Virus record (IMG/VR): IMGVR_UViG_3300048576_000513
Span: 1 to 40,059 of that record
Direction: 5' to 3' (one strand)
Source: a virus
Lineage: Duplodnaviria > Caudoviricetes
DNA: 40,059 bases
A program made the translations under genes and the position numbers. The notes under the pieces were generated by a model. The model saw only the letters and a list, made by a program, of their open reading frames with translations, did not search any database and was not told the DNA's origin. How positions within the stretch are numbered: position 1 is the stretch's first letter; each line of letters starts with the position of its first letter. Below, piece by piece: positions 2,556 through 40,059 of this stretch.

Positions 2556-2799
2556 TGTATGTCTCCTCGCGGACGACAGAGTTTAGGTCGATGTCCTTTT
2601 TTATGTCTTTGATGTACCTTTCCGCCTGTTCCCAACACAAAAATTGTTTGTCTATTTTCTCCCACTCTTCCGTCTCAATATATCGACCAGCAAGAGTATC
2701 GGCTGCCCAAAGTTCTCCTCCATGTAAAGATGATATCCTGACCATTTTTTGATAGACAGTCACTTCTCCACTTTTCTTTTGGACGATCTTGAATTGCAT
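2548..2799 (-). CDS. Hypothetical protein
   Basis: 83 aa, start/stop overlaps on both sides. Confidence 0.65.
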   Translation of the reverse strand: MQFKIVQKKSGEVTVYQKMVRISSLHGGELWAADTLAGRYIETEEWEKIDKQFLCWEQAERYIKDIKKDIDLNSVVREETYNV

Positions 2800-2969
2800 T
2801 ATTCCCCCTCCACCCGCGCATCGACCGTCTGTTCGGTGGGGACGGGAAGCGTCTTCTCTTCTCTATCCGCCCCTTCGATCAACTGTTGGACATCAACCCC
2901 AAGGGCTTCGGCTAACAGAAAGACTGAAGCCAGATATCTTCCGTCACGAGATTCAACTGTCTTGGGCAT
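2799..2969 (-). CDS. Small hypothetical protein (MPKTVESRDG...VEGE)
   Basis: 56 aa ORF read by hand, TAATG-coupled to the next gene. Confidence 0.5.
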   Translation of the reverse strand: MPKTVESRDGRYLASVFLLAEALGVDVQQLIEGADREEKTLPVPTEQTVDARVEGE

Positions 2970-3144
2970 TTGGCATCCTCCAATATGCGGCCTTGATTTG
3001 GTTTATGATCTGGCACACAAAGCAAATCCCAAGACCAACGAGACCTGTCGTTAAATTGCATTTCCCAAGGACAATACACATCGGCCATATCATGCAACCC
3101 AAGAGACTTAAAAAGCCTATGGTAAATTTTATAGGTGGGGTCAT
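2953..3144 (-). CDS. Small two-helix membrane protein
   Basis: Two hydrophobic segments in 63 aa. Confidence 0.55.
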   Translation of the reverse strand: MTPPIKFTIGFLSLLGCMIWPMCIVLGKCNLTTGLVGLGICFVCQIINQIKAAYWRMPNAQDS

Positions 3145-3147
3145 AGA

Positions 3148-3606
3148 TTATTTCTGTTCCTCCGCGTCGAGGGCGGAAATACTATTGGCGAGGTCGTTTG
3201 CCGCAATCTCCTCGTACCGCTTTAGGACTGCCATGTTCTCGAAATTGCCAACAAGCGAAGCCTGCTCGTACCCAAGTCGTTGCAAAAGGAGTCCGCTTGC
3301 CGCTTCCGCCACCCGTTCCAGCTTCTCGTTCCTCTCCCGCAACCGCTCCACCTCGGCCAGGAGGGCGGGGACGTCGGTACGGGAATGGGCGATGAATGCA
3401 GTGTTGGCAAAGCCTTCTTCTCCAGAAATATGATTTTTATATTGGTTCCCTCGGCCATCATGGATGGAAAGGTCGCCAATTATTCTTTTTGGCTTTTCGA
3501 CGGGCGACAATTGGGCGCAATCACCAAGGACTGTAAAATACCACGGCCCCTTAGTCGCCTTCTCAGCCCGCTCCCTGATCTCCTCAAGCTGCTTTGCCGT
3601 CAGCAT
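3148..3606 (-). CDS. ead/Ea22-like protein
   Basis: LEEIRERAEKATKGPW...NTAFIAHSRTDVPALLAEVERLR family pattern. Confidence 0.8.
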   Translation of the reverse strand: MLTAKQLEEIRERAEKATKGPWYFTVLGDCAQLSPVEKPKRIIGDLSIHDGRGNQYKNHISGEEGFANTAFIAHSRTDVPALLAEVERLRERNEKLERVAEAASGLLLQRLGYEQASLVGNFENMAVLKRYEEIAANDLANSISALDAEEQK

Positions 3607-3643
3607 GGCCACGCTCCTTCCCTCTTGATGGCCAACCCAGCCA

Positions 3644-4126
3644 TCATAAATTTGCCGCCCTTCGGATGCCGTCGTACAGAGCCAATCCGGGCACCCAGGA
3701 ACCGTCCAGTTGATCCTCGTATTGGGCCACCATCCAGCCCAGGACGCGGTAGATGAGCCGCCATGTGTGGGCAAGCTGAGACCGGCCGCCGCGCCGGGCA
3801 ACCAGTTCCGCATCCTCGGCTAGGCCGTGGGCGGTGACGATCCAGCGGAGCCCATCTTGTGTTTTCGCCCCTTGGCGTTCGACCACGTCCATGACTTGGC
3901 CCAGAGTCTTGGCGTAAGCATCATGGGCTTTCTGGTTCTTGAAATGCCAGCCACCTTTTTCGTTCCGGCCACCTAGGCGCAGCTCGCAAAGGCGGATGAG
4001 GCAGCCGAGCCGGGCCCGGGCCATGGCAAGGGCGGGGATTGCATCCGTGGACGTGTAAACGGCGTTGCAGACATCCACGGCGATCATGTGGGAACGGTAG
4101 GCAAGTGATGGGGTGACGGTGTTCAT
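3644..4126 (-). CDS. Hypothetical protein
   Basis: Starts MNTVTPS with ATGA overlap. Confidence 0.65.
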   Translation of the reverse strand: MNTVTPSLAYRSHMIAVDVCNAVYTSTDAIPALAMARARLGCLIRLCELRLGGRNEKGGWHFKNQKAHDAYAKTLGQVMDVVERQGAKTQDGLRWIVTAHGLAEDAELVARRGGRSQLAHTWRLIYRVLGWMVAQYEDQLDGSWVPGLALYDGIRRAANL

Positions 4127-4689
4127 CCCTCCACCCTCTTCACCTTCACCACCCAAGCCCACGGGTTCGACTCCCAGGGGTAGCGACGGCCGTAGCGGGA
4201 GGACCAGAACGCCTCAAACTCCGCACGAATCTGCTTGTAGAGCTCATGGCTGGCCGGAGTGTCCATGGACACGCCAAGGGCCATCCGCATGTCGTTCTCG
4301 CAGAGTTGATGCAGGCGGCAGCACCGCACGCTTTCAACCTCCAGGGTGATCCTGGACGCTGCTTCCGGCATCCTGGTTGACGGTTCCCAAGGGCCAGATT
4401 CAACACCATCCGCCGCATAAGCGTACTCATTGACGGGGTGGCCCAATGCCTTCCACGTCTCTTTGCACCGCAGCCGCGTTCCAGGGGCGCCGAAGGGGCT
4501 CTTATCGAGGATCGTGAACCGCCCGCACGCTCCAAGAACTGTACGGCCGGCGACGTCCATATGGTCGGCCAGCGGATGACTGCATACGCACATCGTCTTG
4601 TGGGCGACCGGCCTGACGACCAGCCCCAGCCTATCGTCCAGAGCGGCGCGGGCTTCGTGCGGCGAGAGGGTGAAGCTATGTTCTTTCAT
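4123..4689 (-). CDS. Phage ASCH/PUA-like protein
   Basis: KETW, WEPSTRMPEAASRITLEV, WESNPWAWVV resemble the common WxPSIHMPRWASRITLE...WxxNPWVWV family. Confidence 0.7.
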   Translation of the reverse strand: MKEHSFTLSPHEARAALDDRLGLVVRPVAHKTMCVCSHPLADHMDVAGRTVLGACGRFTILDKSPFGAPGTRLRCKETWKALGHPVNEYAYAADGVESGPWEPSTRMPEAASRITLEVESVRCCRLHQLCENDMRMALGVSMDTPASHELYKQIRAEFEAFWSSRYGRRYPWESNPWAWVVKVKRVEG

Positions 4690-5424: not shown

Positions 5425-7251
5425 TCAGGCAGCCCCTCCCATCGCCTCGCCCACGAACCGGCTTACCGGGCTCTCGTAGACGCGGACCTTGCCGTCCTGG
5501 CCCACCTTCTCCGACCGCTCCGGTCGCACGGCCAGGGTCAGGCAGTCCCGGGCCCGGGTGATGGCCACATAGGCAAGCCGGCGCTCTTCTTCGATGTCGC
5601 CTGCGTCCACGGCGCGCTTGCTCGGCAGGATGTCCTCATTGCAGCCGGCGAGGATCACGTAGGGCCATTCCAGGCCCTTGGCGCCGTGGATGGTGGCCAG
5701 AGTGACGACGCCGGGGCCGGCAGGGTCGGCCGGCGGAATCTCGTCCTGGACGTCGTAGGTGGAGAGCCATTCGAGGTAGGCGGCGACGGTGCGATCCTGC
5801 GGGGGGCGGCCGAAGCAGTACGACCCGACGAAATCCAGGATGTCTTCCGAGACAAAATCTCGCCGAGCCACCATATCAACATCATGCGCACGGATAGCCA
5901 CCAAGACATCGGTGTCCGGCGCGACACTGAAGAAGAGCCAGCCTTGATTGAAAGTCTCCTTCCACTCCTGGAAGTGGCTCCGGTCATGCTGAATGGCCAT
6001 GGCCCGGACGGCGGCGTAATCCTGGTCGGAGAGCTCAAGCTTGTCCTTGATGAGCAGAAACGCGAAGTTGTCGAACGGGTTCACCAGCAGCTTCAAGAAC
6101 GCATGGAACCGCCGGAACTCCTCGGTGTTGGTCAAGGCGGCCTTCTGGCCCACGTAGAGGTACGGCACGCCCACGGCGTCGAGCTCTTCGGCCACCCTCT
6201 GGAGCAGGACGTGCTTGCGGGCGAGGACGGCGGTTTCGCGGGGGAGGAAGTGGTTCAGGTTCGCCAACGTGGCGGCCCTGGCTACGGCCCGGCTGTCCAT
6301 CTCGGGACACGCAGCGACAAGCGCCCCATCTTCCCGGCACGCCTGCATTGTCACCGGCAACCGCATCCGGTTGTGCTCGATCAGCCTGTTTGCCGCTTCG
6401 ACGATCCAGGCCCCAGATCGGTAGTTCCGCTCCAGTCTCAGGACCTGGAAGGTATCCGCGTTCTCCAGGAGGTATTCCGGCGCGGCACCGCGCCATTGGT
6501 AGATGGCCTGGCTGGAATCTCCGACCGCGAATAGGCTGGCCGGCAACCCCTTGGCCATGGTCTCAAGGAGGCCCCACTGGAGTCGATCCAGATCCTGAAC
6601 CTCATCCACCAGCACATGCCGCCAGCCCAGGTACTGCATGACCCGGGGCAGAAGCAGCATAAAGCCGGTCAAGAGGCCGCCGTAGGTCAGGGCGTTGTTT
6701 TCCCGGCAGCGGGCCATGAAGGCGCGGAAGAGGTTGAAAAGCCCTTTGTCGAGCTCGGAAGGCTCAATCCCGGTCGAGTAGTACATGGAGAAGGTAGCAT
6801 CCACGGCCTTCTTGGAGAGCTTCCAGGTTTTCCCCTTGAGCGCCCCCATCTCCGTGGCCACTTGCCGGAGCAGGAACGACTCCTCCCACTCCGAATAGAC
6901 CGTGATGTTGTCCGGCCGCAGGCCAAGCAGTTCCCCGAACCGGCGAAGCTGCACCAGGGCCAGGGCGTGCATGGTGCCCATGGTCACGCCGAAGGCCTTG
7001 TTTCCGATCCGCTTCACCAGCCGTTCCCGCATCTCGCCGGCGGCCTTGCGGGTGAACGTCACGGCCACGATCTCGGACGGCGAGGCGTGGCACTCCTCAA
7101 TCAAGTAGGCGATGCGCTCGGTGAGCACGCGGGTCTTGCCGCTGCCGGCCCCGGCCAGAACCAGGGCCCGGGGCGCGTCGGTGGTCACGGCGGCAAGCTG
7201 GTCCGGATCGAGCGCGGCGCGCGCGCCGCAGGAGGGGTTAGGCGTTTCCAT
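5425..7251 (-). CDS. UvrD/PcrA-like SF1 DNA helicase
   Basis: AGAGSGKT, TFTRKAA, VDEVQD, VGDSSQAIYQWRGA, NYRS, TIHGAKGLEW, EERRLAYVAITRA. Confidence 0.96.
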   Translation of the reverse strand: METPNPSCGARAALDPDQLAAVTTDAPRALVLAGAGSGKTRVLTERIAYLIEECHASPSEIVAVTFTRKAAGEMRERLVKRIGNKAFGVTMGTMHALALVQLRRFGELLGLRPDNITVYSEWEESFLLRQVATEMGALKGKTWKLSKKAVDATFSMYYSTGIEPSELDKGLFNLFRAFMARCRENNALTYGGLLTGFMLLLPRVMQYLGWRHVLVDEVQDLDRLQWGLLETMAKGLPASLFAVGDSSQAIYQWRGAAPEYLLENADTFQVLRLERNYRSGAWIVEAANRLIEHNRMRLPVTMQACREDGALVAACPEMDSRAVARAATLANLNHFLPRETAVLARKHVLLQRVAEELDAVGVPYLYVGQKAALTNTEEFRRFHAFLKLLVNPFDNFAFLLIKDKLELSDQDYAAVRAMAIQHDRSHFQEWKETFNQGWLFFSVAPDTDVLVAIRAHDVDMVARRDFVSEDILDFVGSYCFGRPPQDRTVAAYLEWLSTYDVQDEIPPADPAGPGVVTLATIHGAKGLEWPYVILAGCNEDILPSKRAVDAGDIEEERRLAYVAITRARDCLTLAVRPERSEKVGQDGKVRVYESPVSRFVGEAMGGAA

Positions 7252-7633: not shown

Positions 7634-8207
7634 CCACCTCCACCACGTCCCACCCCTCCGGCACGCTCGCCGGCCGGTGGCAGGAATTAACTACAAGCTG
7701 CGTCCCCGGGTTGGTGACGACCATGTGCTCCAGGGCCAGGGTCAGGTGCGCCTCGTCGAGCTCGGCCACCTCCAGGATCAGGACCCGGTGCTTGGCGTCG
7801 CCGAGCAGCGCATGGGCCATGGCGGCGTCGAAAAGCACGCGCTGGCCGCCGCTCAATCCGGCGTGGGGGATCGTGCGCCCGTCCGGCCGCTTCCAGGCCA
7901 GGATCACGGCGCCGTCGTCCTCAATGTGCATATCGGCCTCGCCCTCGGGGAGAATCTGCCTCATGACCTCGGCCAGGGCCTCGCACGTCTTGGCCATGGC
8001 CTTGGCCTTCTGGCTTTTGAGGGCTTCGAGGGCGGCCTTGGCTTCCACCAGCCCCTTGCGGGCATTGGCGGCCTTGGCGCGCTGCGCCTCGATCACCTCT
8101 TCGAGTCCCTTGGCCTGGTTGTAGAGGGCCAGTTCCCCGCGCAGGGACTTCAACCGGGCTTCCAGGCCGGAAACCTGTTGCTCCAGAATGGCGGTGTCGG
8201 CGCTCAT
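7620..8207 (-). CDS. C-terminal half of Rad50/SbcC-like ABC ATPase
   Basis: Coiled coil, LSGGQ signature, variant Walker B/D-loop VLILEVAELD, H-switch VVNSCH. Confidence 0.8.
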   Translation of the reverse strand: MSADTAILEQQVSGLEARLKSLRGELALYNQAKGLEEVIEAQRAKAANARKGLVEAKAALEALKSQKAKAMAKTCEALAEVMRQILPEGEADMHIEDDGAVILAWKRPDGRTIPHAGLSGGQRVLFDAAMAHALLGDAKHRVLILEVAELDEAHLTLALEHMVVTNPGTQLVVNSCHRPASVPEGWDVVEVGDAA

Positions 8208-9178
8208 GCGGCGGCCCTCCCGTCCAGCCCCTTGCGGGCCTTGGCCAGTTCTTGCTTGATGACCATCTTGGCGGCGCATACGTCGCAGCCGGCCCGGTCC
8301 ATGGTGGAGAGGATGCGCTCAAGGATGACGGTCATGTCGGGAGCGGCCGGGGCGGCCGGCTCTTGCCGAAGGAATGCTTCGGGTGGTCCGGCTTCTCCGA
8401 CAAGGTGATATCCCGAGACTTCGGGGCCCCCACCCTGCGCCAGTGTGGCCGTCTCGGCCGGGGCCGATTGTTCAACCTGCCGCGCTTCGGCCTTGGCCTG
8501 CTCCTCGACCCTGGCCGCCGCGATCCGCTCCGCTTCCAGGTCGGCCCGGGCCTGCCGCAAATCAGCTTCGGCCTTGTCGATCTCGGCCTGCTTGTCGGCC
8601 ATGGTCCCGGCCGGAAGCTGGATGCCGGCCTTCTTGGACGTGATGTTGGCGACCAGGGACGCCGCTTCCCGCTCCTCGCGCTCCAGGGCCGCGATGCGCT
8701 TCGCCTGCCGCTCGATCTTTTCGGCAATCCCCTTCACGTCGCCTTCCGGCGGAAACAGGCGTAAAAGCTCGTCGATTTTCTTGGCGTCGGAGAGCCCGAG
8801 GAACACCGAGAGGTCCACCACGGCCACGTCGGCCAGGGCCCGGGCGAACTCGGGCGCGCTGCACTTGATGCCGCCGGCGTACATCTCCTGGGACACGGCC
8901 CCGGTGCGTTCGGAGCGCGAGAACCGGCGCTCGAGCTTCTTGCCCGACTCCAGGACCACCCCGGCGCGCAGGTCCTTGCCCTTGCCGTCGTGGAAGGCCT
9001 CCAGGATCGCAGCGTTTTGCTTTCCGGCCCCGGGCACGTAGCCGAGAACCGCGAGCTGCAGGGCCTGGGTCCGGGCGGACTTGCCTGCCCCGTTCGGCCC
9101 CACTACCAGGGTCAGCCCCCCCAAGGGGGCCTGGAACGTGGCCCCCTTGAAGTTGTGGGCGGTGACCGCGGCGATCAC
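8204..9178 (-). CDS. N-terminal half of Rad50/SbcC-like ABC ATPase
   Basis: HNFKG, Walker A GPNGAGKS, coiled coil, CDVC near C-terminus. Confidence 0.85.
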   Translation of the reverse strand: MIAAVTAHNFKGATFQAPLGGLTLVVGPNGAGKSARTQALQLAVLGYVPGAGKQNAAILEAFHDGKGKDLRAGVVLESGKKLERRFSRSERTGAVSQEMYAGGIKCSAPEFARALADVAVVDLSVFLGLSDAKKIDELLRLFPPEGDVKGIAEKIERQAKRIAALEREEREAASLVANITSKKAGIQLPAGTMADKQAEIDKAEADLRQARADLEAERIAAARVEEQAKAEARQVEQSAPAETATLAQGGGPEVSGYHLVGEAGPPEAFLRQEPAAPAAPDMTVILERILSTMDRAGCDVCAAKMVIKQELAKARKGLDGRAAA

Positions 9179-10470
9179 GACGCACCCTCGTCAACCATGC
9201 CGGAGATGGCCTTGTAGAGTTTGCGGGCCTGGGCCGGGGTGATGGTCGCGTCCTGGGGGATGCCCATATTATGGCGGGCGGCGGCGTCATGATCCGGGAA
9301 CATCTCCCGGGTGGCCTCGTAGTTTTCGAGGTCCTTGAGGTCGGCGTCGGAGTACGGACCGGCTTCAGCGGCCTTGACCGGTTCCGGCTCCCCGGATTCC
9401 CCCTCGGGCTCATGGCCGTAGGTGCCGTTTTCGCCCGGGGTCATGTCGATGGGCGCGGCGGCTTCGGCCGGGGCCGCTTCGGGTTCGCGTTCCTCGTCTT
9501 CGGCGTTGATGAGGTCTTCCTCCTCATCCATCCGATCCACGCCCTTGGTATACTGGATGGTCACAGGCTGCTCGCCTTCGCCCAGAGCGGCGAAGTTCTG
9601 GCCCTCGCCAAGCCCTTCAACGCGGCGCTGGACGTTGGCGTACATCGTGGCGTCCCACTTGAGCAGGCTGCCGCCGGTCGGACGCCAGCAGATAATGGAG
9701 AGGTCCCACCGGGGGCCGGGGGCCTTCTGTAGCCCGGAAAGGTGCTTACAGGCGTTGCGGCGGGCGAAGGTTTGCGCGAAATCGATGGCCTTCTTCTCGC
9801 GGTTCAGTATCTCGCCGTACCACTTCAAGGCCTCGCCGTGTTCGCTGTTGACCCACAGGACCATGGTTTCGTCAAAAGGATAACTTCCCCAGGTGCCCGC
9901 GTCCTTCGGCTTGTCCATGTCCGCCGGCAAGAGCTTGAACGCCTGGGGGGTTTGCTTTGCCTTGGCGATGAGGTCGATCAGGCGGTAGCTCGGCACGTCG
10001 TAGGCCGTGGTCCAGTCGGCGACCATGGGCAGGCCCTTCGAGGAGAATCGGAAGGCCACGGCCCGGGCGTAGATGTTGAGGATGCGCCGGTTGTTCGGGT
10101 CGCGGATCACGTGGGGGTTGGCCTGCTCCACGCCGTCCACAGTCACGGTCTTCGGGAAGATGACGCACGCCCCGGCAGCCTCGGCCCACAGCTCGTAACC
10201 CTGGGCCGAAACGACGAAGGGAATTTTGTCGGAAAAACCGGGCTTCACCAGCCCGCCATTCTCGGCCGAAAGGGTCAGGCGCTGCTTGAACGCTTTGATT
10301 TCCCCGGCCTTGTCAGTCAGGGCGAAAGCCTCATCCACTCCCAGGGCGACAATGTCCTTTTTGTGGAGCGCTCCGATGTAGGCGCTCAGGGCCTTTCCTT
10401 CCTGGGGCATGCTGGCCACCACCGCCCCGAGGGCGGCCTGGGCCTGGGATTGCAAATCGGCGTAGGTCAC
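9175..10470 (-). CDS. Hypothetical protein, possible single-strand annealing recombinase
   Basis: 431 aa; FAQTFARRNACKHLSG resembles the AxTxAxxRA helix of phage annealing proteins; acidic tail; context. Function inferred. Confidence 0.5.
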   Translation of the reverse strand: MTYADLQSQAQAALGAVVASMPQEGKALSAYIGALHKKDIVALGVDEAFALTDKAGEIKAFKQRLTLSAENGGLVKPGFSDKIPFVVSAQGYELWAEAAGACVIFPKTVTVDGVEQANPHVIRDPNNRRILNIYARAVAFRFSSKGLPMVADWTTAYDVPSYRLIDLIAKAKQTPQAFKLLPADMDKPKDAGTWGSYPFDETMVLWVNSEHGEALKWYGEILNREKKAIDFAQTFARRNACKHLSGLQKAPGPRWDLSIICWRPTGGSLLKWDATMYANVQRRVEGLGEGQNFAALGEGEQPVTIQYTKGVDRMDEEEDLINAEDEEREPEAAPAEAAAPIDMTPGENGTYGHEPEGESGEPEPVKAAEAGPYSDADLKDLENYEATREMFPDHDAAARHNMGIPQDATITPAQARKLYKAISGMVDEGAS

Positions 10471-19099: not shown

Positions 19100-19468
19100 A
19101 TGAGTATGAAGACACCTCCGATCCCCGAGTGGAAACAGTTGGAAATGGCCCTGGGCGACCCTGACGCGCCCCAGGAACCTTACCAAAAGGCCTTGACCAT
19201 CACCTCGCCCATCATTCCGGTCTACGCCAAATGGCTGACCTGCATAACCCGCATGTACGATGATTTGGTGTGTGCCAACCAATGGGTTGTCTGGTGGACC
19301 AACACGACACCGCCCCTTTACGAAGAATTTTCGCGGGAGGAGTTCAACAAGCGCTTCGTCCTGGAGTCGCAGGCCCCGGCGCACATGCGTGAACGATTCG
19401 CGGCGATGCCGAGCTACCTGGATTGGGTGGATATGCACAATGCGGATGAGGACGGGGTGCGGCAATGA
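19100..19468 (+). CDS. Hypothetical protein
   Basis: MSMKTPP..., RBS, ATGA overlap with the methyltransferase. Confidence 0.65.
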   Translation: MSMKTPPIPEWKQLEMALGDPDAPQEPYQKALTITSPIIPVYAKWLTCITRMYDDLVCANQWVVWWTNTTPPLYEEFSREEFNKRFVLESQAPAHMRERFAAMPSYLDWVDMHNADEDGVRQ

Positions 19469-22464
19469 TGCTCGACATGCTCGGCGGAAGGTCCGGCGGT
19501 CATGGCCTGGAGCTTGTGGTGGACAGCTTTGCCGGCGGCGGGGGCGCCTCGACCGGCATCCGTCTGGCCCTGGGGCGCGATCCCGACGCGGCTCTCAACC
19601 ACGACCCCGTGGCCCTGGCCATCCACAAGGCCAACCACCCCGGGAGCATCCACTACTGCCAGGACATCTTTTCGGTGGAACCGAACCACGTGACCATGGG
19701 TCGGCCGGTCGGGCTCCTGTGGGCCTCGCCGGACTGCTTCCCGGCCGGGACCATGATCCTGACCCAAAAGGGTTTCGCCCCTATCGAGAGCCTATGCGTC
19801 GACGACCTCGTTCTGACCCACAAAGGCCATTGGCGCCGGGTGACCTGCACAATGAAGACCGTGAAGGACACGCTCATCGTGCGCGGCCAAGGCCATTATG
19901 GGTTAGAAGTTTCAGCCGAGCATCCCTTCCTATCTAGGGCCGCGAAAAACGCCTGGCGGAACAACACGACTGTCAAGGAGTGGTCCACCCCCTCTTGGGT
20001 GAAGGCGGACGAACTTAAAAAAGGCTCCTACTGGGCAACCCCCGTTTCTGCTGACCCTCTTGCGACTCCACCTGTCGAAGGCCGTTCCCTTCCTTTCAGT
20101 GAGGGCTTTTGGTGGCTCGTCGGCAGGTATTTGGCTGACGGATGGTCACGCATCCGCGAGGGCACAGGATCGGAACTGGTGATTTGTTGCGGCAAGGCCA
20201 AGGCCGACGTCACCCGAGAACGTTTGAACTTTTGCCCGCCGGCTGGCGGCAGAGCTTGCGATAACGAACTGCGATGGGGCGAACGCGAGACGAGGACCGA
20301 AATCCAATTCACGGCCAGCCACAAGGGCATGGTCCAGTGGCTCCGGGATCACTTCGGCCACCTCGCGCAAAACAAGCGGCTACCTGGGTGGGCTCTTGGC
20401 CTTGACGAAAATTCCAGGCGGGCAATTCTGGACGGTTATTTCGCCGGCGACGGATGGGAGAGCGGCAACATCGTCGAAGTCGGCAGCGTTTCTAAAGCCT
20501 TGATTCTCGGCATGCGTCTCTTGGCCGAATCCCTGGGGCGCAGGGCGACCTTGTATTTCCAGGCAGGCAGGCCAACCACCATAGAAGGCCGGGCGGTCAC
20601 CAATGTGCGCGACGCCTATAAGGTCCGCTGGAGAAAGCAACTCCTTCGCCAGCAAACGACTGCGGACGACAAGCATTCCTGGTCGGCAATCCGGGACGTG
20701 GCCCCAGGCCGCCAAGGCGTGGATGTCTACAACCTCTCTGTGGAAGAAGACGAATCCTACATCGCTGAAGGTGTCGTCGTGCACAATTGTACCCATTTTT
20801 CTAAGGCCAAGGGCGGCGCGCCGAAACGCAATGCCAAGATCCGCGACCTCGCTTGGGCCGTGGTCAAATGGGCTCGCGAGGCCCGTCCCCGGGTCATCAT
20901 TTTGGAGAACGTCGAGGAGTTCGTCACCTGGGGACCGCTTTCCGAACGCGGCGAGATCGTCAAGGGGCGCGAGGGCGAGACGTTCCGGCAGTGGCTGCGC
21001 CAGCTCCGGCGACTCGGCTACCGGGTGCGGCACCGCGAGCTTCGGGCCTGCGACTACGGCGCGCCCACCATCCGCAAGCGGTTTTTCCTCATCGCCCGAC
21101 GCGACGGCCGCCCCATCGTCTGGCCCAAGCCGACGCACGGCCCGGGCCGGCCGCAGCCGTACCGCACGGCGGCCGACATCATCGATTGGTCCATCCCGTG
21201 CCCGTCGATTTTCGAGCGGGCCCGGCCGCTGGCGGAAAACACCCTGCGCCGCATCGCCGAGGGCATCCGCCGGTACGTGATCGAGGCGGCCGAACCGTTC
21301 ATCGTCACCTATTACGGCCCCAAGCGTCCCGGAGATTTCCGGGGCAACGGCCTGTCGGAACAGCTCGGGACGCAGACGACGGAAAACCGGCACGCGTTGG
21401 TGACGCCCTATGTCGTCAACCTGACCCATGGCGGCCGATTGGAACCGGGCAACGAACCGCTGCGCACCATCACCACGGCGCATCGGGGAGAAAAGGCCAT
21501 CGCCGTTCCCGTGCTGGTGACCAACACGACCGGCCACGCTCCGGCGAATACTCGTGGCCCCGTTTCGACCCTCACCACCGGCGGACAGCAAATGCTTGCC
21601 TGCGCCGGCCTGGTCGGCGTCGGCGGTCGGGCCGGCCAGTCCCGCCCCAGAGGCGCGGGCGAATCCACGGCCACCACCACGGCCAAGGCCGACACGGCCG
21701 TCGTGGCCGCCACTATGATCCAGACCGGGTACGGCGAGCGTCCCGGCCAGACGCCCCGGGCCCTGGACCTGCAAAAGCCGCTGGGCACCATCGTTGCAGG
21801 CGGCGGCAAGCACGCCGTGGCGGCCGCCTGCCTGCTCAAGCATTACGGCGGCGTGGTCGGTCAGCCGGCGGACGCGCCCATGGGCACCGTGACCACGGTG
21901 GACCACCATTCCGTGTTGGCCGCCTCGATTATGCGCCAGTTCGGCAACTCGGTCGGCGCCCCGGCGGACGATCCCCTCGGCACGGTCACGGCCGGAGGCG
22001 GCGGCAAGTCCGGACTCGTCACCTCGAACCTCGTCAAGCTGCGCGGCACCTGCCGGGACGGCCAGCCCGTCACCGAACCCATGCCGACCGTCACGGCAGG
22101 GGGCACCCATATCGGCGAGGTGCGGGCGTTCCTGGTCAAATACTTCGGCACGGCCATTGGCCAGGACCTGCGCGATCCGCTTCATACCGTGACCACCAAG
22201 GATCGCTTGGGCCTCGTGACCGTTCAGGGCGAAGAATACGTCATCGCGGACATCGGCCTGCGCATGCTTACACCCCGGGAACTGTTCCTGGCCCAGGGCT
22301 TCCCCGCCGACTACGTGATCGATCCGGTGTTCAACGGCAAGCCGCTGCCGAAGTCGAAACAGGTCCGCGCCTGCGGCAACAGCGTGTGCCCGCCCCTGGC
22401 CGAGGCGCTGGTCCGGGCGAACTGCGCGGATATGGCCGTGGAGACCATGGAGGTGGGGGCGTGA
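19465..22464 (+). CDS. DNA cytosine-C5 methyltransferase containing an intein
   Basis: FAGGGG, SPD|C, ENV, YGAPTIRKRF, RMLTPREL..AQGFP, GNSV. Confidence 0.96.
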   Translation: MMLDMLGGRSGGHGLELVVDSFAGGGGASTGIRLALGRDPDAALNHDPVALAIHKANHPGSIHYCQDIFSVEPNHVTMGRPVGLLWASPDCFPAGTMILTQKGFAPIESLCVDDLVLTHKGHWRRVTCTMKTVKDTLIVRGQGHYGLEVSAEHPFLSRAAKNAWRNNTTVKEWSTPSWVKADELKKGSYWATPVSADPLATPPVEGRSLPFSEGFWWLVGRYLADGWSRIREGTGSELVICCGKAKADVTRERLNFCPPAGGRACDNELRWGERETRTEIQFTASHKGMVQWLRDHFGHLAQNKRLPGWALGLDENSRRAILDGYFAGDGWESGNIVEVGSVSKALILGMRLLAESLGRRATLYFQAGRPTTIEGRAVTNVRDAYKVRWRKQLLRQQTTADDKHSWSAIRDVAPGRQGVDVYNLSVEEDESYIAEGVVVHNCTHFSKAKGGAPKRNAKIRDLAWAVVKWAREARPRVIILENVEEFVTWGPLSERGEIVKGREGETFRQWLRQLRRLGYRVRHRELRACDYGAPTIRKRFFLIARRDGRPIVWPKPTHGPGRPQPYRTAADIIDWSIPCPSIFERARPLAENTLRRIAEGIRRYVIEAAEPFIVTYYGPKRPGDFRGNGLSEQLGTQTTENRHALVTPYVVNLTHGGRLEPGNEPLRTITTAHRGEKAIAVPVLVTNTTGHAPANTRGPVSTLTTGGQQMLACAGLVGVGGRAGQSRPRGAGESTATTTAKADTAVVAATMIQTGYGERPGQTPRALDLQKPLGTIVAGGGKHAVAAACLLKHYGGVVGQPADAPMGTVTTVDHHSVLAASIMRQFGNSVGAPADDPLGTVTAGGGGKSGLVTSNLVKLRGTCRDGQPVTEPMPTVTAGGTHIGEVRAFLVKYFGTAIGQDLRDPLHTVTTKDRLGLVTVQGEEYVIADIGLRMLTPRELFLAQGFPADYVIDPVFNGKPLPKSKQVRACGNSVCPPLAEALVRANCADMAVETMEVGA
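19735..20787 (+). mobile_element. Intein (351 aa) with LAGLIDADG homing endonuclease
   Basis: Begins CFPAGT; block B SAEHPF; LVGRYLADG and ILDGYFAGDG; ends VYNLSVEEDESYIAEGVVVHN|C. Confidence 0.96.
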
Positions 22465-23904: not shown

Positions 23905-24797
23905 TGGACTGGCTCCGCTGGTACCACGGATCATGCACAGACCCGAAATTCCGGGTGGTGGCCAAGAAAGCTGCCCGGGAGGTCGACGGTATCCGCGTAT
24001 CGGATGTGCTGGCTGTGTGGGCGATGATCCTGGAGCGGGCCAGCGAGAGTGACCCCAGAGGATCGTTTTCCGGCTTTGATTGCGAAGGTGCGGACGTGAC
24101 CCTGGACATGCCCGACGGATCAGCCTGCGCCATCCGCGCTGCCCTCGAGGCAAAAGGCCTGGTCGAAGGCGACATGGTGGTCAACTGGTCCAAACGACAG
24201 CCAAAGCGCGAACGTGAGGACAACAGCACTTCCCGGGTCAGGGATTATCGGGAACGGAAAAAGCAAGAAAGCAACACCACTTGCGACAATGGAACGCCAT
24301 GTAACGCCACGCAACGCCAGGAAACACCTAGATTAGATAAGAGTAGAGAAGAATTAATAACAGGGTGTACCCCCCTACCCCCCACAGGGGGGGGAGGGCT
24401 TCCCGATCTCCCTCCTTCTCCCGAGGACGATCCGGACGTCCACCCCCAGGCCGAAATTTCCAGCCTCAACGATTGTGCCATTGAGTTCCAGGACCTCGCG
24501 GCTGCCTACCAATCCGCCGGAGGCTGCGTGGACGTGGTCCCGGCCTACAAGGCCTACGAGGGCATGCGGCGAGGATTCCCCCTGGCCATGATTATCGGCG
24601 ATCTGGAGAAGCGGAAAAATTGCGACCAGTGGCGGCGTGGGCGAATCCCGAAGCTCTCGAACTACCTCGGGGACCGCGTGTGGCTCAACCCGATACCAGC
24701 GGCCCGGGCCAGCCCCACCGGTGAAAAACTCGGGCCTGACGGGAAACCGGACTGGATGCGTTACGCCGGAAGCTGTTTGAAGGGGCAAGCCACATGA
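23904..24797 (+). CDS. Phage replication initiator
   Basis: WLRWYH..TDPKF, NWSKRQ..STSRVRDYRERKK, central low-complexity region, IPKLSNYLGDRVW. Confidence 0.8.
   Translation: MDWLRWYHGSCTDPKFRVVAKKAAREVDGIRVSDVLAVWAMILERASESDPRGSFSGFDCEGADVTLDMPDGSACAIRAALEAKGLVEGDMVVNWSKRQPKREREDNSTSRVRDYRERKKQESNTTCDNGTPCNATQRQETPRLDKSREELITGCTPLPPTGGGGLPDLPPSPEDDPDVHPQAEISSLNDCAIEFQDLAAAYQSAGGCVDVVPAYKAYEGMRRGFPLAMIIGDLEKRKNCDQWRRGRIPKLSNYLGDRVWLNPIPAARASPTGEKLGPDGKPDWMRYAGSCLKGQAT
24289..24395. repeat. Putative replication origin
   Basis: AACGCCA three times at 10-nt period plus AACACC, then A-rich tract and C-run/G-run inverted repeat, inside the initiator gene. Confidence 0.5.
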
Positions 24798-28479: not shown

Positions 28480-29400
28480 ATGCGCATCGTCAGCATCGAT
28501 GGCGGCGGGATCAAGGGCTATCTCCCGGCCCTCGTGCTCGCCATGCTCGAGACGCAAACCGGGAAGCCCATAGGCGCCATGGCCGGCATGCTGGCAGGCA
28601 CGTCCACCGGTGCGATCCTGGCGCTCGGGCTGGCCGCCGGCATCCCCGCCCTCGAAATGGCCAACTTCTATCGCTCCAAGGGCCCGGCCATCTTCCGGCG
28701 GTCCTGGGGCAAACGGCTGCGGTCCTGCTTCGGCGTGGCGGATGAGCAGTACAGCAACTATGCCCTCCACACTGGCCTGCGCGAAATCTTCGGCGACAGG
28801 AAGCTCTCCGACCTCATCACGCCCTGCATGGCCGTGGCCTACGAGATCGAGACGCGCCAGGCCGTTTTTTTCACGTCCTGGGATGCCACGCGCGACCCGC
28901 ACCGGGACTTCTCGCTTGTGGACGTGGCCATGGGAAGCGCGGCGGCCCCCACCTATTTCGAACCATGGCCGACCATGAGCGTGACCGGGGACCGGCTGGC
29001 CTGCGTGGACGGAGGGGTGGCGGCCAATAATCCGGGCCTGTGCGCCGTGGTCGAAGCGATCAAGCGGGGTTCCCTGCTCGATTCCGTCAGCCTCGTGTCT
29101 CTTGGAACCGGGCAGGAGGATCGGCCTTACCTCCTCCGTCTCGCGCGCAACTGGGGCCTGGCTGCCTGGTCCCGGCCGCTCCTGGATATCCTGTTCGCCG
29201 CAGCCTCCGACGTCACGGATCACCACTGCCGGAATTTGCTCGGGCAGCGGTATGTACGGCTCCAGCAGGATTTCAGCGAGCCTGTGGGGATGGATCAGAC
29301 GGACGACCGTGCGTGGGCTGTCATGCGCATGTGCGCGGGGAAGATCGCGGGACGACCGGAGATGGAGCAGGCCATGCGGCTGCTTGGAGAGGAGGCGTAG
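28480..29400 (+). CDS. Patatin-like phospholipase
   Basis: DGGGIKG, GTSTG, SAAAPTYF, DGGVAANNP, SLGTG. Confidence 0.95.
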   Translation: MRIVSIDGGGIKGYLPALVLAMLETQTGKPIGAMAGMLAGTSTGAILALGLAAGIPALEMANFYRSKGPAIFRRSWGKRLRSCFGVADEQYSNYALHTGLREIFGDRKLSDLITPCMAVAYEIETRQAVFFTSWDATRDPHRDFSLVDVAMGSAAAPTYFEPWPTMSVTGDRLACVDGGVAANNPGLCAVVEAIKRGSLLDSVSLVSLGTGQEDRPYLLRLARNWGLAAWSRPLLDILFAAASDVTDHHCRNLLGQRYVRLQQDFSEPVGMDQTDDRAWAVMRMCAGKIAGRPEMEQAMRLLGEEA

Positions 29401-36525: not shown

Positions 36526-36561
36526 GTCACGCTTGACGTGACTACTGCCTGATAGTATTCT
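36526..36561 (+). promoter_or_regulatory. Cassette promoter with operator over the -35
   Basis: TTGACG (36533-38)-17 nt-TATTCT (36556-61); GTCACG-N5-CGTGAC at 36526-42. Confidence 0.75.
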
Positions 36562-36594
36562 TTCATAACACTTGGCGAGCAATGGGCCTGTCAT

Positions 36595-36846
36595 GGTGTG
36601 GCTCGCTGGGGCGCGGCTCAGATTGGTTTGGCGCGTTGCGGTGAAGCACGGCAAGGCGTTGTCTGGTGTGCCAGGGCGTGGGACGGCAAGGCTTGGAAAC
36701 AAATTTCTCGTGGCTTGGCGTGGGTGCCGATGTGGGGCGAGGTAAGGCGAGGCGCGCCGATGCTCGGTTTGGGTAAATTTTTTCATGGCGAGGCACGCCC
36801 GGGCGGTGTGAGCCGGGGTGGTGCTAGGCGTGTCAAGGCAAGGAAC
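36595..36846 (+). ncRNA. Upstream array of three GGY-NN pentamer tracts (putative guide RNAs)
   Basis: 5-nt register at 36595-36699 (13 of 21 units start GGY), 36712-36775, 36787-36846; A/T linkers AAATTTCTCGT and AAATTTTTTCAT. Confidence 0.8.
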
Positions 36847-36866
36847 TTTTAACGCGAGGATGAAAA

Positions 36867-37487
36867 ATGGAACGCATCGCTTTTCAGATCGAAGGCATTG
36901 CTCCGATTCTCATGCACGACAATACGCGGCTGGCGAATCCGCTTGATCCGCTGTGCAAGGAGCTGAAATCGGTCACCAGCAAGAAGAAAAAAACCGATTC
37001 CGACTTGGCCGCCATTGCCAAAATCGAGTTTCGCGGCGGTATCTATTTCGATGAGACGGACGGACCCTACATCCCGTCCCGCTGCATCCAGGCTATGCTC
37101 CGGGATGCCGGAACCATCAACAAGCAGGGCCGGGCCGTGAATCGCGGTGTCGTGGTCGTCGAGGACAAGTGTCCGCTCCAGTACGAAGGGCCGCGCACCA
37201 TTGACGCGCTTTTCGAGTCGGGCGAATTTACCGACATGCGCCCGGTGAAGGTCCAGACGTCCACCACCGTGCGCTGCCGGCCCATCTTTCGGGCCTGGGG
37301 CATCAAGTTCACCCTGGCCTTTCAGCCCGACGTCATCAACCGTGAAGAGGTCATCGACATCGTGGAGCGCGCCGGCATGATGACCGGATTGGGCGACTAC
37401 CGGCCCGGTTCTCCCAAGGGGGGCCAGTTCGGTCGCTTCGAGGTGGTGGCCATCGACGGCAAAAAGGTGGCCAAGGAGGCGGCGTAA
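36867..37487 (+). CDS. Stand-alone Cas7/RAMP-superfamily-like protein
   Basis: IEGIAPILMH first strand, PYIP..IQAMLRDA helix, RPIF..W..KFTL, G-rich loop GLGDYRP...GQFGRFEV. Confidence 0.75.
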   Translation: MERIAFQIEGIAPILMHDNTRLANPLDPLCKELKSVTSKKKKTDSDLAAIAKIEFRGGIYFDETDGPYIPSRCIQAMLRDAGTINKQGRAVNRGVVVVEDKCPLQYEGPRTIDALFESGEFTDMRPVKVQTSTTVRCRPIFRAWGIKFTLAFQPDVINREEVIDIVERAGMMTGLGDYRPGSPKGGQFGRFEVVAIDGKKVAKEAA

Positions 37488-37489
37488 TC

Positions 37490-37984
37490 ATGGGTGCCCT
37501 TCGATCCATCCGCGAAGCCCACAAGCCGCCCGAGGGAACGCAATACGACAAGGGGTGGCAAAATGCCCTGGCGGCTTTCGACTCAGCCGATTTTTATCCC
37601 GGCGACATCATCCCCATGGCGTGGTTCTATGAGCACTTCCGGGTCAAGGAGCCTTCGTCTCGCGGGACGATAGCCGAGTTCCAGGAAGAGCAGTTCCGTT
37701 TCCTTGGGGAGATGGACCGCTTCCAGAAGGCCCTGGCCGAGGATTACGACCTCGCTTTGCAAAACGTCCGGGGCGAGGGCTACCGGATCGTTCCGCCGGC
37801 CGAGCAAACGGAATGGGCCATGGACCGAGCGCAGCGGGAATTTGGGAAGGCCCTTTCTCGGGCGCACATGCGCTTGACGCATATTCGGCTGAACGAGCTG
37901 ACCGACGAACAGCGCCGGCAAAACGCCGACGCACAGGCCAAGCTGGCCGCGTTCAGGACGAGGGCCAGGACGGCGTTGGTTTGA
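37490..37984 (+). CDS. Accessory protein of the cassette (winged-helix-like)
   Basis: AGGAGG RBS; wing-like LQNVRGEGYRI; helical C-terminus. Confidence 0.75.
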   Translation: MGALRSIREAHKPPEGTQYDKGWQNALAAFDSADFYPGDIIPMAWFYEHFRVKEPSSRGTIAEFQEEQFRFLGEMDRFQKALAEDYDLALQNVRGEGYRIVPPAEQTEWAMDRAQREFGKALSRAHMRLTHIRLNELTDEQRRQNADAQAKLAAFRTRARTALV

Positions 37985-37992
37985 ATTTTCGT

Positions 37993-38524
37993 GGCAAGGT
38001 CTGGTGGGGTCCGGAAAGGCACGATACGGCTGTGCTGGGTCGAGTTTGGCTTGCCTCAAAGGTCCGGCGGCTTCGGTCGTCGGGCCGAACGAGGTTGGCT
38101 CGGGAGTGGTACGGCTGTGTCTGGTTCTGCACGGCGGGGCGATGTTGGGCGTGGCTTGCCTTCGAGGTGCAGCGGCGAAAGTCGTTGCACTGATCAAGGC
38201 GCGGTCCGGACTGGTTCGGCGGGGACAGGCGCGGCTGGGCAAGGTTCGGCCTTACATGGCCAGGCAGAGCAAGGATTGCCTCCGAGAAGCCGGCGTTTCG
38301 ATCCTGGCTTCGATCGAGGCGGGGAGATGTTGGGTGAAGCCGGTCGATGCACGCCATGGCTCGGTGATGCCGGCCACGGCCAGGCTTGCCTCCGAGGCCC
38401 AGGGAGCAATCCTTGGGCCGATCAAGGCTAGGCACGGTTGGGCGGAGTGTGGCGCTGTTGGGATTGTTGGGCGGTGTTGGGCTTGCCTTGCAGGGGCGTC
38501 AACTCCGATTGGCGTCCCGATCAA
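37993..38524 (+). ncRNA. Downstream array of five GGY-NN tracts, each closed by GGMTTGCCTY, hairpin and GAWCRA
   Basis: Tracts start 37993, 38093, 38198, 38318, 38426; hairpins 38061-86 (UUCG), 38167-90 (GAAA), 38286-311, 38396-419 (GCAA), 38493-518. Confidence 0.88.
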
Positions 38525-38543
38525 GATAAGCAGGAGGAAAGAC

Positions 38544-39687: not shown

Positions 39688-40059
39688 CTACCTCCCCGCC
39701 TGCTTTCTCCCCAGCCCTTCCGCCAGCAACGCCACGGCCAGGGTGTTCATGGACACGCCTTCGATCTCGGCTTGTTGAGCCAGCTTGGCGTGGAGGCTCT
39801 TGGGGGCACGCAGGTTGAACTTGCCGGAAGCTGCTCCCCCGCTTCCCGGGGCCGGGAGCGCGCGTCCGTCCTCCAGGTAAATGGCGATCACCCCTCCCAG
39901 AGCATCGCGGCCATTGGCCAAAGCCTCTTCCGGCGTCTCGCCGTCCGACATGACCGCGCCGGGAAAGTCCGGGAACACGACCAGCCACCCGCCGCCGTCC
40001 TCTTCGGTGAGCGGCGTTATCTGAAAGGGGTAGTCCTCGAACTTCGGCATGGTGGGCAT
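39688..40059 (-). CDS. hicB: HicB family antitoxin
   Basis: EEDGGGWLVVFPDFPG..SDGETPEEAL; RHH SGKFNLRAPKSLH..EGVSMN. Confidence 0.93.
   Translation of the reverse strand: MPTMPKFEDYPFQITPLTEEDGGGWLVVFPDFPGAVMSDGETPEEALANGRDALGGVIAIYLEDGRALPAPGSGGAASGKFNLRAPKSLHAKLAQQAEIEGVSMNTLAVALLAEGLGRKQAGR

Follow-up and report, generated by a model that had tools for sequence, protein, structure and literature searches.

A type II-like VIPR locus in a Caudoviricetes provirus with a predicted guide RNA matching a conserved motif of serine recombinases

In the 40,059-nucleotide stretch of DNA analysed here (hereinafter the window), which is the entire provirus record IMGVR_UViG_3300048576_000513 (Duplodnaviria; Caudoviricetes), two non-coding stretches, at 36.57–36.87 kb and 37.99–38.53 kb, show a strong 5-nucleotide periodicity and enclose two short genes. 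Set out in fives, both stretches read as successive NN-GGY pentamers. The loci of the VIPR system have been described as consisting of a minimal RAMP protein (Vipr), an accessory gene (vap) and vrRNAs, each of which comprises 9–16 YNNGG repeats and a structured tail (10.64898/2026.04.26.720920), and the elements of the present locus, all on the plus strand, can be named accordingly. The first enclosed gene, vipr (36867–37487), encodes a 206 aa RAMP protein that was recognized by homology to a protein of Escherichia phage phiSUSP1 (hereinafter SUSP1), a match to PHROG 4652, an AF2 model and Foldseek comparison. The second (37490–37984) is a vap1-like accessory gene for a protein of 164 aa that matches PHROG 5926 and has homologs in SUSP1 and LESphi2. 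Upstream of vipr, the region 36578–36866 contains three pentamer tracts, u1–u3, and likely encodes one or more upstream vrRNAs. Ahead of these tracts lies a sigma-70-like promoter match, TTGACG-17-TATTCT (36533–36561), which is a match to the consensus only; two such matches were found compared with 0.7 expected in shuffled sequences. The u1–u3 tracts are devoid of the tail found in the downstream stretch and have short A/T-rich ends instead, GGAAACAAATTTCTC, GGGTAAATTTTTTCA and AGGAACTTTTAACGC, which may represent a second type of tail or else staggered or degenerate vrRNAs.

In the downstream stretch, five units (d1–d5) are arranged head to tail; each has 11–15 pentamers and, after them, a tail of approximately 43 nucleotides with the layout TTGCCTCCGAGG, a hairpin and then CGATCAAGG. 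Unit d1 (37991–38093) includes 12 repeats (37991–38050) and a tail at 38051–38093, d2 (38101–38198) has 11 repeats (38101–38155) and a tail at 38156–38198, and d3 (38201–38318) has 15 repeats (38201–38275) and a tail at 38276–38318. The unit that is the main subject of this work, d4, combines a tract of 13 pentamers (38321–38385) with a 3' tail at 38386–38427. The last unit, d5 (38428–38525), consists of approximately 11 repeats (38428–38482) and a tail at 38483–38525; its NN reading is ambiguous because the register changes by one base inside the tract, such that the 5' part follows the phase of the d4 tail whereas the last three units follow that of the d5 tail. The five tails can be aligned with each other, and RNAalifold folds the alignment into an outer stem of 5 bp that encloses a hairpin of 11 bp, with compensatory two-sided changes among the five tails in 9 of the 16 consensus pairs. 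The d4 tail adopts the same structure, with an outer stem GCCUC/AAGGC that includes one C-A mismatch, and the inner hairpin. When region 38045–38534 of the window was compared with contigs from public sequencing runs, short contigs of three runs matched in the tails only and then continued into different pentamer tracts, which suggests, as far as can be judged from the sequences, close relatives that share these tails but carry different guides. Contigs of four sequencing runs from a single study (probably of DNA) cover variants of vipr and the tails, and do not cover d4.

Searches for other kinds of non-coding elements in the window yielded no Rfam families in a scan at the gathering thresholds and no tRNAs detectable by ARAGORN. 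A CRISPR array, with direct repeats of 25–40 nucleotides, unique spacers and cas genes, was considered and rejected: the repeat search recovered only the pentamer-tract units of approximately 105–120 nucleotides, and a Pfam scan of the 29 ORFs of the window found no cas families. Also considered were a TRAP-like protein-binding repeat, runs forming G-quadruplexes and a reverse-transcriptase template, all dropped given the Vipr homology and the published code.

The 206 aa protein has no match in Pfam, and produced a highly significant hit to PHROG 4652 (E-value 2.6e-55) and another to the SUSP1 homolog (E-value 1.3e-33; 35 % identity over residues 4–194). In SUSP1, the vipr gene is flanked by one pentamer tract upstream and three downstream, in agreement with the published description. 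An AlphaFold (AF2) model of the window Vipr built from 35 homologs has a pLDDT of 91, and a Foldseek search with this model gave 56 matches at E-values of 0.001 or less, the best solved structures being Csm3, Cmr4 and Cas7 (E-value 1.5e-5, TM-score of about 0.5). The residues that hold the GGY triplet in SUSP1 Vipr are reported to be H17, R138, D177, W178 and R179 (10.64898/2026.04.26.720927); the corresponding residues of the window protein are H17, R138, D177, Y178 and R179, such that four are identical and the tryptophan is replaced with another aromatic residue. In contrast, the residues of the Y3 pocket, E71, M72 and C173 in SUSP1, are R, C and T, respectively, in the window Vipr. The Vap protein showed significant similarity to PHROG 5926 (E-value 1.2e-27) and to proteins encoded directly downstream of vipr in SUSP1 (E-value 4.4e-9; 24 % identity) and in Pseudomonas phage LESphi2 (E-value 7.5e-25).

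Vipr belongs to a large, unnamed protein family with 381 clusters at E-values of 1e-10 or less, and its close relatives (P0003–P0005) are 79–95 % identical to the window protein. A search for relatives seeded with the single Vipr sequence retrieved none, whereas the alignment-based search retrieved 429 loci, of which 80 related viral loci were kept. In these viral loci, NNGGY tracts lie on the vipr strand in 73 of the 80 cases and on the other strand in three, and a guide resembling d4 was present in none of the 80. The PADLOC collection (2023) includes no models for Vipr or Vap.

Judging from gene content and homology, we classify the locus as a VIPR system resembling type II. As in the type II systems of SUSP1 and of the Pseudomonas fulva prophage, a vipr-vap1 pair is accompanied by one or more upstream vrRNAs and a downstream array, and as in SUSP1, 11–15 GGY/NN repeats are joined to a structured tail and yield matches in other mobile elements with a 1-nucleotide skip aligned to the wobble position (see below). 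There are also clear differences from SUSP1. Apart from the modest identity of both proteins and the altered Y3 pocket, the array has five downstream units instead of three, the tail sequence differs, the upstream tracts are A/T-rich at the end, and the element itself is a provirus with a tyrosine integrase and a G+C-rich host. The likeness to the backbones of Class 1 CRISPR systems (Cas7/Csm3/Cmr4) extends to the RAMP fold, one protomer per repeat unit and periodically flipped bases, but the window lacks CRISPR repeats and cas genes, and a VIPR guide is noncontiguous, with two of every five guide bases pairing with two of every three target bases. We know of no adaptation module in VIPR systems.

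The provirus record is estimated to be 67 % complete. In addition to the tyrosine integrase, it encodes a CI-like repressor, a terminase and a portal protein, and a gene for a Mu-F-like protein is located just upstream of the VIPR locus. Several other features of the provirus were observed in the course of the analysis. Defense-like genes are located at 5428–7251, 8207–10470, 28480–29397 and 39688–40059; a GajB-like UvrD helicase (PADLOC E-value 9.9e-79) lies near an AAA_23 ATPase, and there are also a patatin-like phospholipase effector (E-value 4.7e-66) and a HicB antitoxin. These genes look like defense cargo. At 19465–22461, a C-5 cytosine methylase of 999 aa is interrupted by Hint/intein and LAGLIDADG domains and therefore appears to be an intein-bearing methylase. 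Finally, an A-rich stretch at 24250–24400, inside a called ORF, contains three copies of AACGCCA approximately 10 nucleotides apart followed by a hairpin formed by a C-run and a G-run; the arrangement might represent iterons, or else an operator and a terminator.

The mode of target recognition by VIPR has been reported in detail: the NN pairs of a vrRNA base-pair with double-stranded DNA, every third base of the target is skipped, and the skipped base usually coincides with the wobble position of a codon (10.64898/2026.04.26.720920). The preliminary description of this DNA, made from the sequence alone, had arrived at the notion of a codon-phased code, which turns out to be equivalent to this 1-nucleotide-skip rule. 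It had placed the fourth downstream tract at 38318–38392. The 13-unit tract indeed lies within this interval, but the interval also takes in three bases of the previous tail and seven bases of the tail of d4 itself; the tract stops where the conserved tail begins with TTGCC (38386). The pentamers from 38321 to 38385 are GGGGA, GATGT, TGGGT, GAAGC, CGGTC, GATGC, ACGCC, ATGGC, TCGGT, GATGC, CGGCC, ACGGC and CAGGC, and the NN pairs read from them, GG, GA, TG, GA, CG, GA, AC, AT, TC, GA, CG, AC and CA, are identical to the pairs listed originally. Taken as the first and second positions of codons, these pairs spell G-[DE]-[CW*]-[DE]-R-[DE]-T-[IM]-S-[DE]-R-T-[HQ].

To search for potential targets, the NN string was turned into a 1-nucleotide-skip pattern and exact-match scans were run against viral, genome and metagenome contigs from three public collections. 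Among the viral contigs, the 11-NN pattern had no matches and the 9-NN core had two; the 11-NN pattern gave one match among the genome contigs, where about 0.07 would be expected for random sequence, and three among the metagenome contigs, in which the full 13-NN pattern was not found. All six matches are in frame, with the skipped base at the third codon position, and fall on the same peptide, A-E-[W/F]-E-R-[D/E]-T-I-S-E-R-T, as anticipated by the earlier proposal that d4 spells a serine recombinase motif. Moreover, all six matched ORFs contain the Resolvase domain (PF00239) with scores above the Pfam cut-off, and several additionally contain Recombinase and zinc-ribbon domains. Over the full guide, five of the matches score 23 of 26 and the sixth 25 of 26 (88–96 %), and a perfect 26/26 target was not found in the contig scans. 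The best match (L009) encodes V-A-E-W-E-R-D-T-I-S-E-R-T-Q and differs from d4 only in the first, 5'-most NN, GC in place of GG. The cryo-EM study describes this end of the filament as flexible (10.64898/2026.04.26.720927). In the alignment of the target recombinases, both the RVST motif with its serine and the motif E-x-E-R-x-x-I-x-E-R-T are apparent. In the protein encoded at locus L006, the latter occupies residues 127–138, within the part that aligns to the structures of gamma-delta resolvase, DNA invertases and the TP901-1 integrase; we take it to be 'helix E' of serine recombinases.

The controls set these matches apart from the background. The reversed 9-NN core had no matches in the viral contigs compared with two for the real pattern, and in the 35 genomes of the phylum that includes genome G001, where only G001 contains a match, the backward pattern had none. 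Shuffling the order of the units produced maxima of 16–19 of 26, both with 100 shuffles over 47 recombinase loci and with 40 shuffles over 30 recombinase loci; the highest shuffled score was 19/26 in 543 kb of loci and 20/26 in 80 kb of one genome. Thus, the enrichment in serine recombinase genes over shuffled controls, on which the original proposal had been staked, was observed, with 23–25 of 26 for the real order. When the skip length was set to 0, 1, 2 or 3 nucleotides, the top scores in the 30 loci, which had been chosen by the Resolvase HMM alone, were 19, 23, 16 and 18, respectively.

The breadth of the potential target range can be gauged with the published threshold of 80 % NN match, which for d4 corresponds to at least 21 of 26. 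Among the 30 HMM-chosen loci, which come from one small phylum, two reach this level, one of them being the L006 gene, and in about 12 more the best site is the same motif with 17–20 of 26. Among viral recombinases, 27 of 47 reach 80 %, in a sample that is biased because it was selected with the peptide pattern [IFV][AS]E[WF]ER[ED]T. Therefore, d4 fits one branch of the family, which includes short recombinases of 224–245 aa and some large ones, rather than every serine recombinase. The targets sit in mobile elements. The L006 gene is located at the edge of an integrated island, where its neighbors are KfrA_N and DUF3987 genes. The L008 gene belongs to a different phage and is flanked by genes for a Mu-F-like protein and a GIY-YIG endonuclease, and viral contigs carry two further targets, the large serine recombinases L004 and L005. 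On the metagenome contig that carries L008 (approximately 2694–4533), the short serine recombinase gene directly follows the portal and Mu-F-like genes, that is, it occupies the genomic slot that in the window is taken by the VIPR locus. No other guide of the array converged on the d4-matched element in the 80 kb around L006, in the one genome analysed, and Vipr was not found in genome G001 with the window protein as the query.

Some of the sister guides also produced matches. The core of d3 had six matches in the viral contigs, one in each of six contigs, all of which are homologous, antisense and wobble-aligned, with 25–27 of 30 NN positions matching; the target peptide, L-W-I-S-D-F-H-A-C-P-D, belongs to a protein similar to the terminase large subunit (PHROG 9, E-value 2.9e-9) that is unrelated to the terminase of the window itself. 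The core of d1 had a single match in the viral contigs, with 21 of 24 NN positions, in a gene for an AlpA-family excision regulator (PF05930, E-value 1.1e-7); the pattern used in this case covers 18 bases, so that about one chance match is plausible and the evidence is weak. For d2, d5 and u1–u3, no targets above the shuffle null were detected in 543 kb of loci. By sequence, the d1 and d3 matches fit the published picture of guides directed against rival elements.

The foremost alternative to an active guide is that d4 is a decaying one, with a GGY scaffold too eroded for Vipr assembly, so that the match of its NN string would be a fossil without present function. Indeed, d4 is the most degenerate of the four in-register tracts: only 5 of its 13 triplets are canonical GGY, compared with 8/12 in d1, 7/11 in d2 and 10/15 in d3. 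The first VIPR paper reports that perturbation of GGY abolished silencing in SUSP1 (10.64898/2026.04.26.720920), hence d4 may be weak or dead, and both G1 and G2 are described as being read by specific residues (10.64898/2026.04.26.720927). However, each of the eight deviant triplets is only one base off and retains two of the three positions, the tail of d4 is intact and fits the covarying structure, and the NN string still matches a natural gene at 96 % although neutral decay would be expected to erode the NN positions as well. In addition, internal degeneracy of vrRNAs is reported to be frequent (10.64898/2026.04.26.720920), and triplets degenerate at one position are described for whole VIPR clusters (10.64898/2026.10.21.760802). 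On balance, we consider decay unlikely.

A second alternative, which appears quite improbable, is that d4 regulates not a competitor but a recombinase of the phage itself, encoded in the part of the genome that is missing from the record, or a recombinase of the host such as an invertase. The incompleteness of the provirus record leaves some room for this scenario, especially given that the window ends soon after the locus, without tail genes. Within the 40-kb provirus, neither the d4 pattern nor the Resolvase family was detected; as the preliminary description had noted, there is no serine recombinase gene in the window, and the integrase of the phage is of the tyrosine type. The best self-match of d4 in the window is 17 of 26, and all guides of the array remain at or below 73 % on the window; in the VIPR loci examined in the first paper, no self-targeting at 80 % or above is reported (10.64898/2026.04.26.720920). 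Furthermore, of the best-matching recombinases, L006 lies at the margin of an integrated element and L008 belongs to another phage. Finally, the possibility that the likeness of d4 to the recombinase motif arose by chance in a G+C-rich periodic tract is hardly credible: although the collections are so large that a 25/26 match somewhere in approximately 1e12–1e13 positions is not astronomically improbable (P of 1.8e-14 per site), exact matches in three collections hit, six times out of six and always in frame, a single motif of one protein family, the reversed and shuffled controls did not reproduce them, only the 1-nucleotide skip gave high scores, and the sister guide d3 behaves in the same manner on another gene family.

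Accordingly, the reading that we favor, and regard as probable, is that d4 is the fourth of five vrRNA units, matches the codons of a serine recombinase motif, and is predicted to silence competing mobile elements. This reading builds on the anatomy of the locus, the homology of the two proteins and the RAMP fold of Vipr, the covariation in the tails, the wobble-aligned matches and the lack of a self-target in the window, and agrees with the original suggestion that d4 is a guide to a recombinase gene of another mobile element. Transcription, vrRNA processing, filament formation and silencing are all extrapolated from the VIPR systems of SUSP1 and P. fulva. By analogy with these, the array would be transcribed and cut into vrRNAs of approximately 110 nucleotides, and each GGY triplet would be bound by one Vipr protomer, with the NN pair left exposed. 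The NN bases would then pair with one DNA strand as a gapped hybrid in which every third target base is flipped out; d4 reads in the same sense as the coding strand, so that in its case the paired strand would be the template strand of the recombinase gene. Once bound, the complex would be expected to block transcription of this gene; as in CRISPR interference by binding, the type II system is reported in the VIPR preprints to silence through binding, without cleavage (10.64898/2026.04.26.720920, 10.64898/2026.04.26.720927). A rival phage, satellite or integrative element that carries a recombinase of this kind would then be unable to integrate or excise. Given that the NN bases fall on codon positions 1 and 2 of a motif conserved in the catalytic domain, the target could not escape by synonymous drift.

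There is a close precedent for such a guide. The reported targets of VIPR are competing phages and satellites (10.64898/2026.04.26.720920), and vrRNA4 of SUSP1 has been shown experimentally to silence the excision recombinase of the F5 satellites, which uses a serine for catalysis, thereby immobilizing the satellite; its footprint encompasses six units and 18 bp, over residues 79–84, just upstream of the catalytic serine (10.64898/2026.10.15.759431). Like vrRNA4, d4 is codon-phased on conserved codons of the catalytic domain of a recombinase with a catalytic serine, and the proposed outcome is likewise immobilization of a rival. Unlike vrRNA4, d4 consists of 13 units that span 38 bp, falls on the E-x-E-R-x-x-I-x-E-R-T motif located further on, close to where the catalytic domain ends, comes from an unrelated phage lineage and is a prediction made from sequence. 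The main text of the first VIPR paper mentions neither 'serine recombinase' nor 'integrase' (10.64898/2026.04.26.720920), and 'serine recombinase' is not used in the paper on vrRNA4 (10.64898/2026.10.15.759431); the supplementary target tables of these papers might contain recombinase targets from other clades. Thus, the VIPR system, its code and a recombinase-directed guide have already been published, and the locus described here is a new instance with a well-resolved predicted target.

The first descriptions of VIPR date back no further than 2026, and what is known of its biology rests on a few systems from Enterobacteria and Pseudomonas. The locus in the window displays the same logic with a Vipr only 35 % identical to that of SUSP1 and in a G+C-rich host, with guides that are codon-phased on conserved motifs and aimed at genes that rivals need in order to move or to be packaged. 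More tentatively, a distant, G+C-rich VIPR lineage may have settled independently on serine recombinases, with d4 acting as a silencer at the level of the protein family and the array as a whole serving as a kit against excision, integration and packaging. If so, a single vrRNA, with a long guide of 13 units placed on the motif at which the catalytic domain is most conserved, would act against the recombinases of many unrelated elements, and the targets of the sister guides would be a terminase and an AlpA-type regulator of excision. Because of its degenerate GGY triplets, d4 provides a natural test of how much variation of the scaffold is tolerated by Vipr. Should d4 be active, the silencing of recombinases would no longer be peculiar to SUSP1 but a strategy that recurs among VIPR systems, and VIPR guides could be aimed at the motifs of protein families rather than at single genes.
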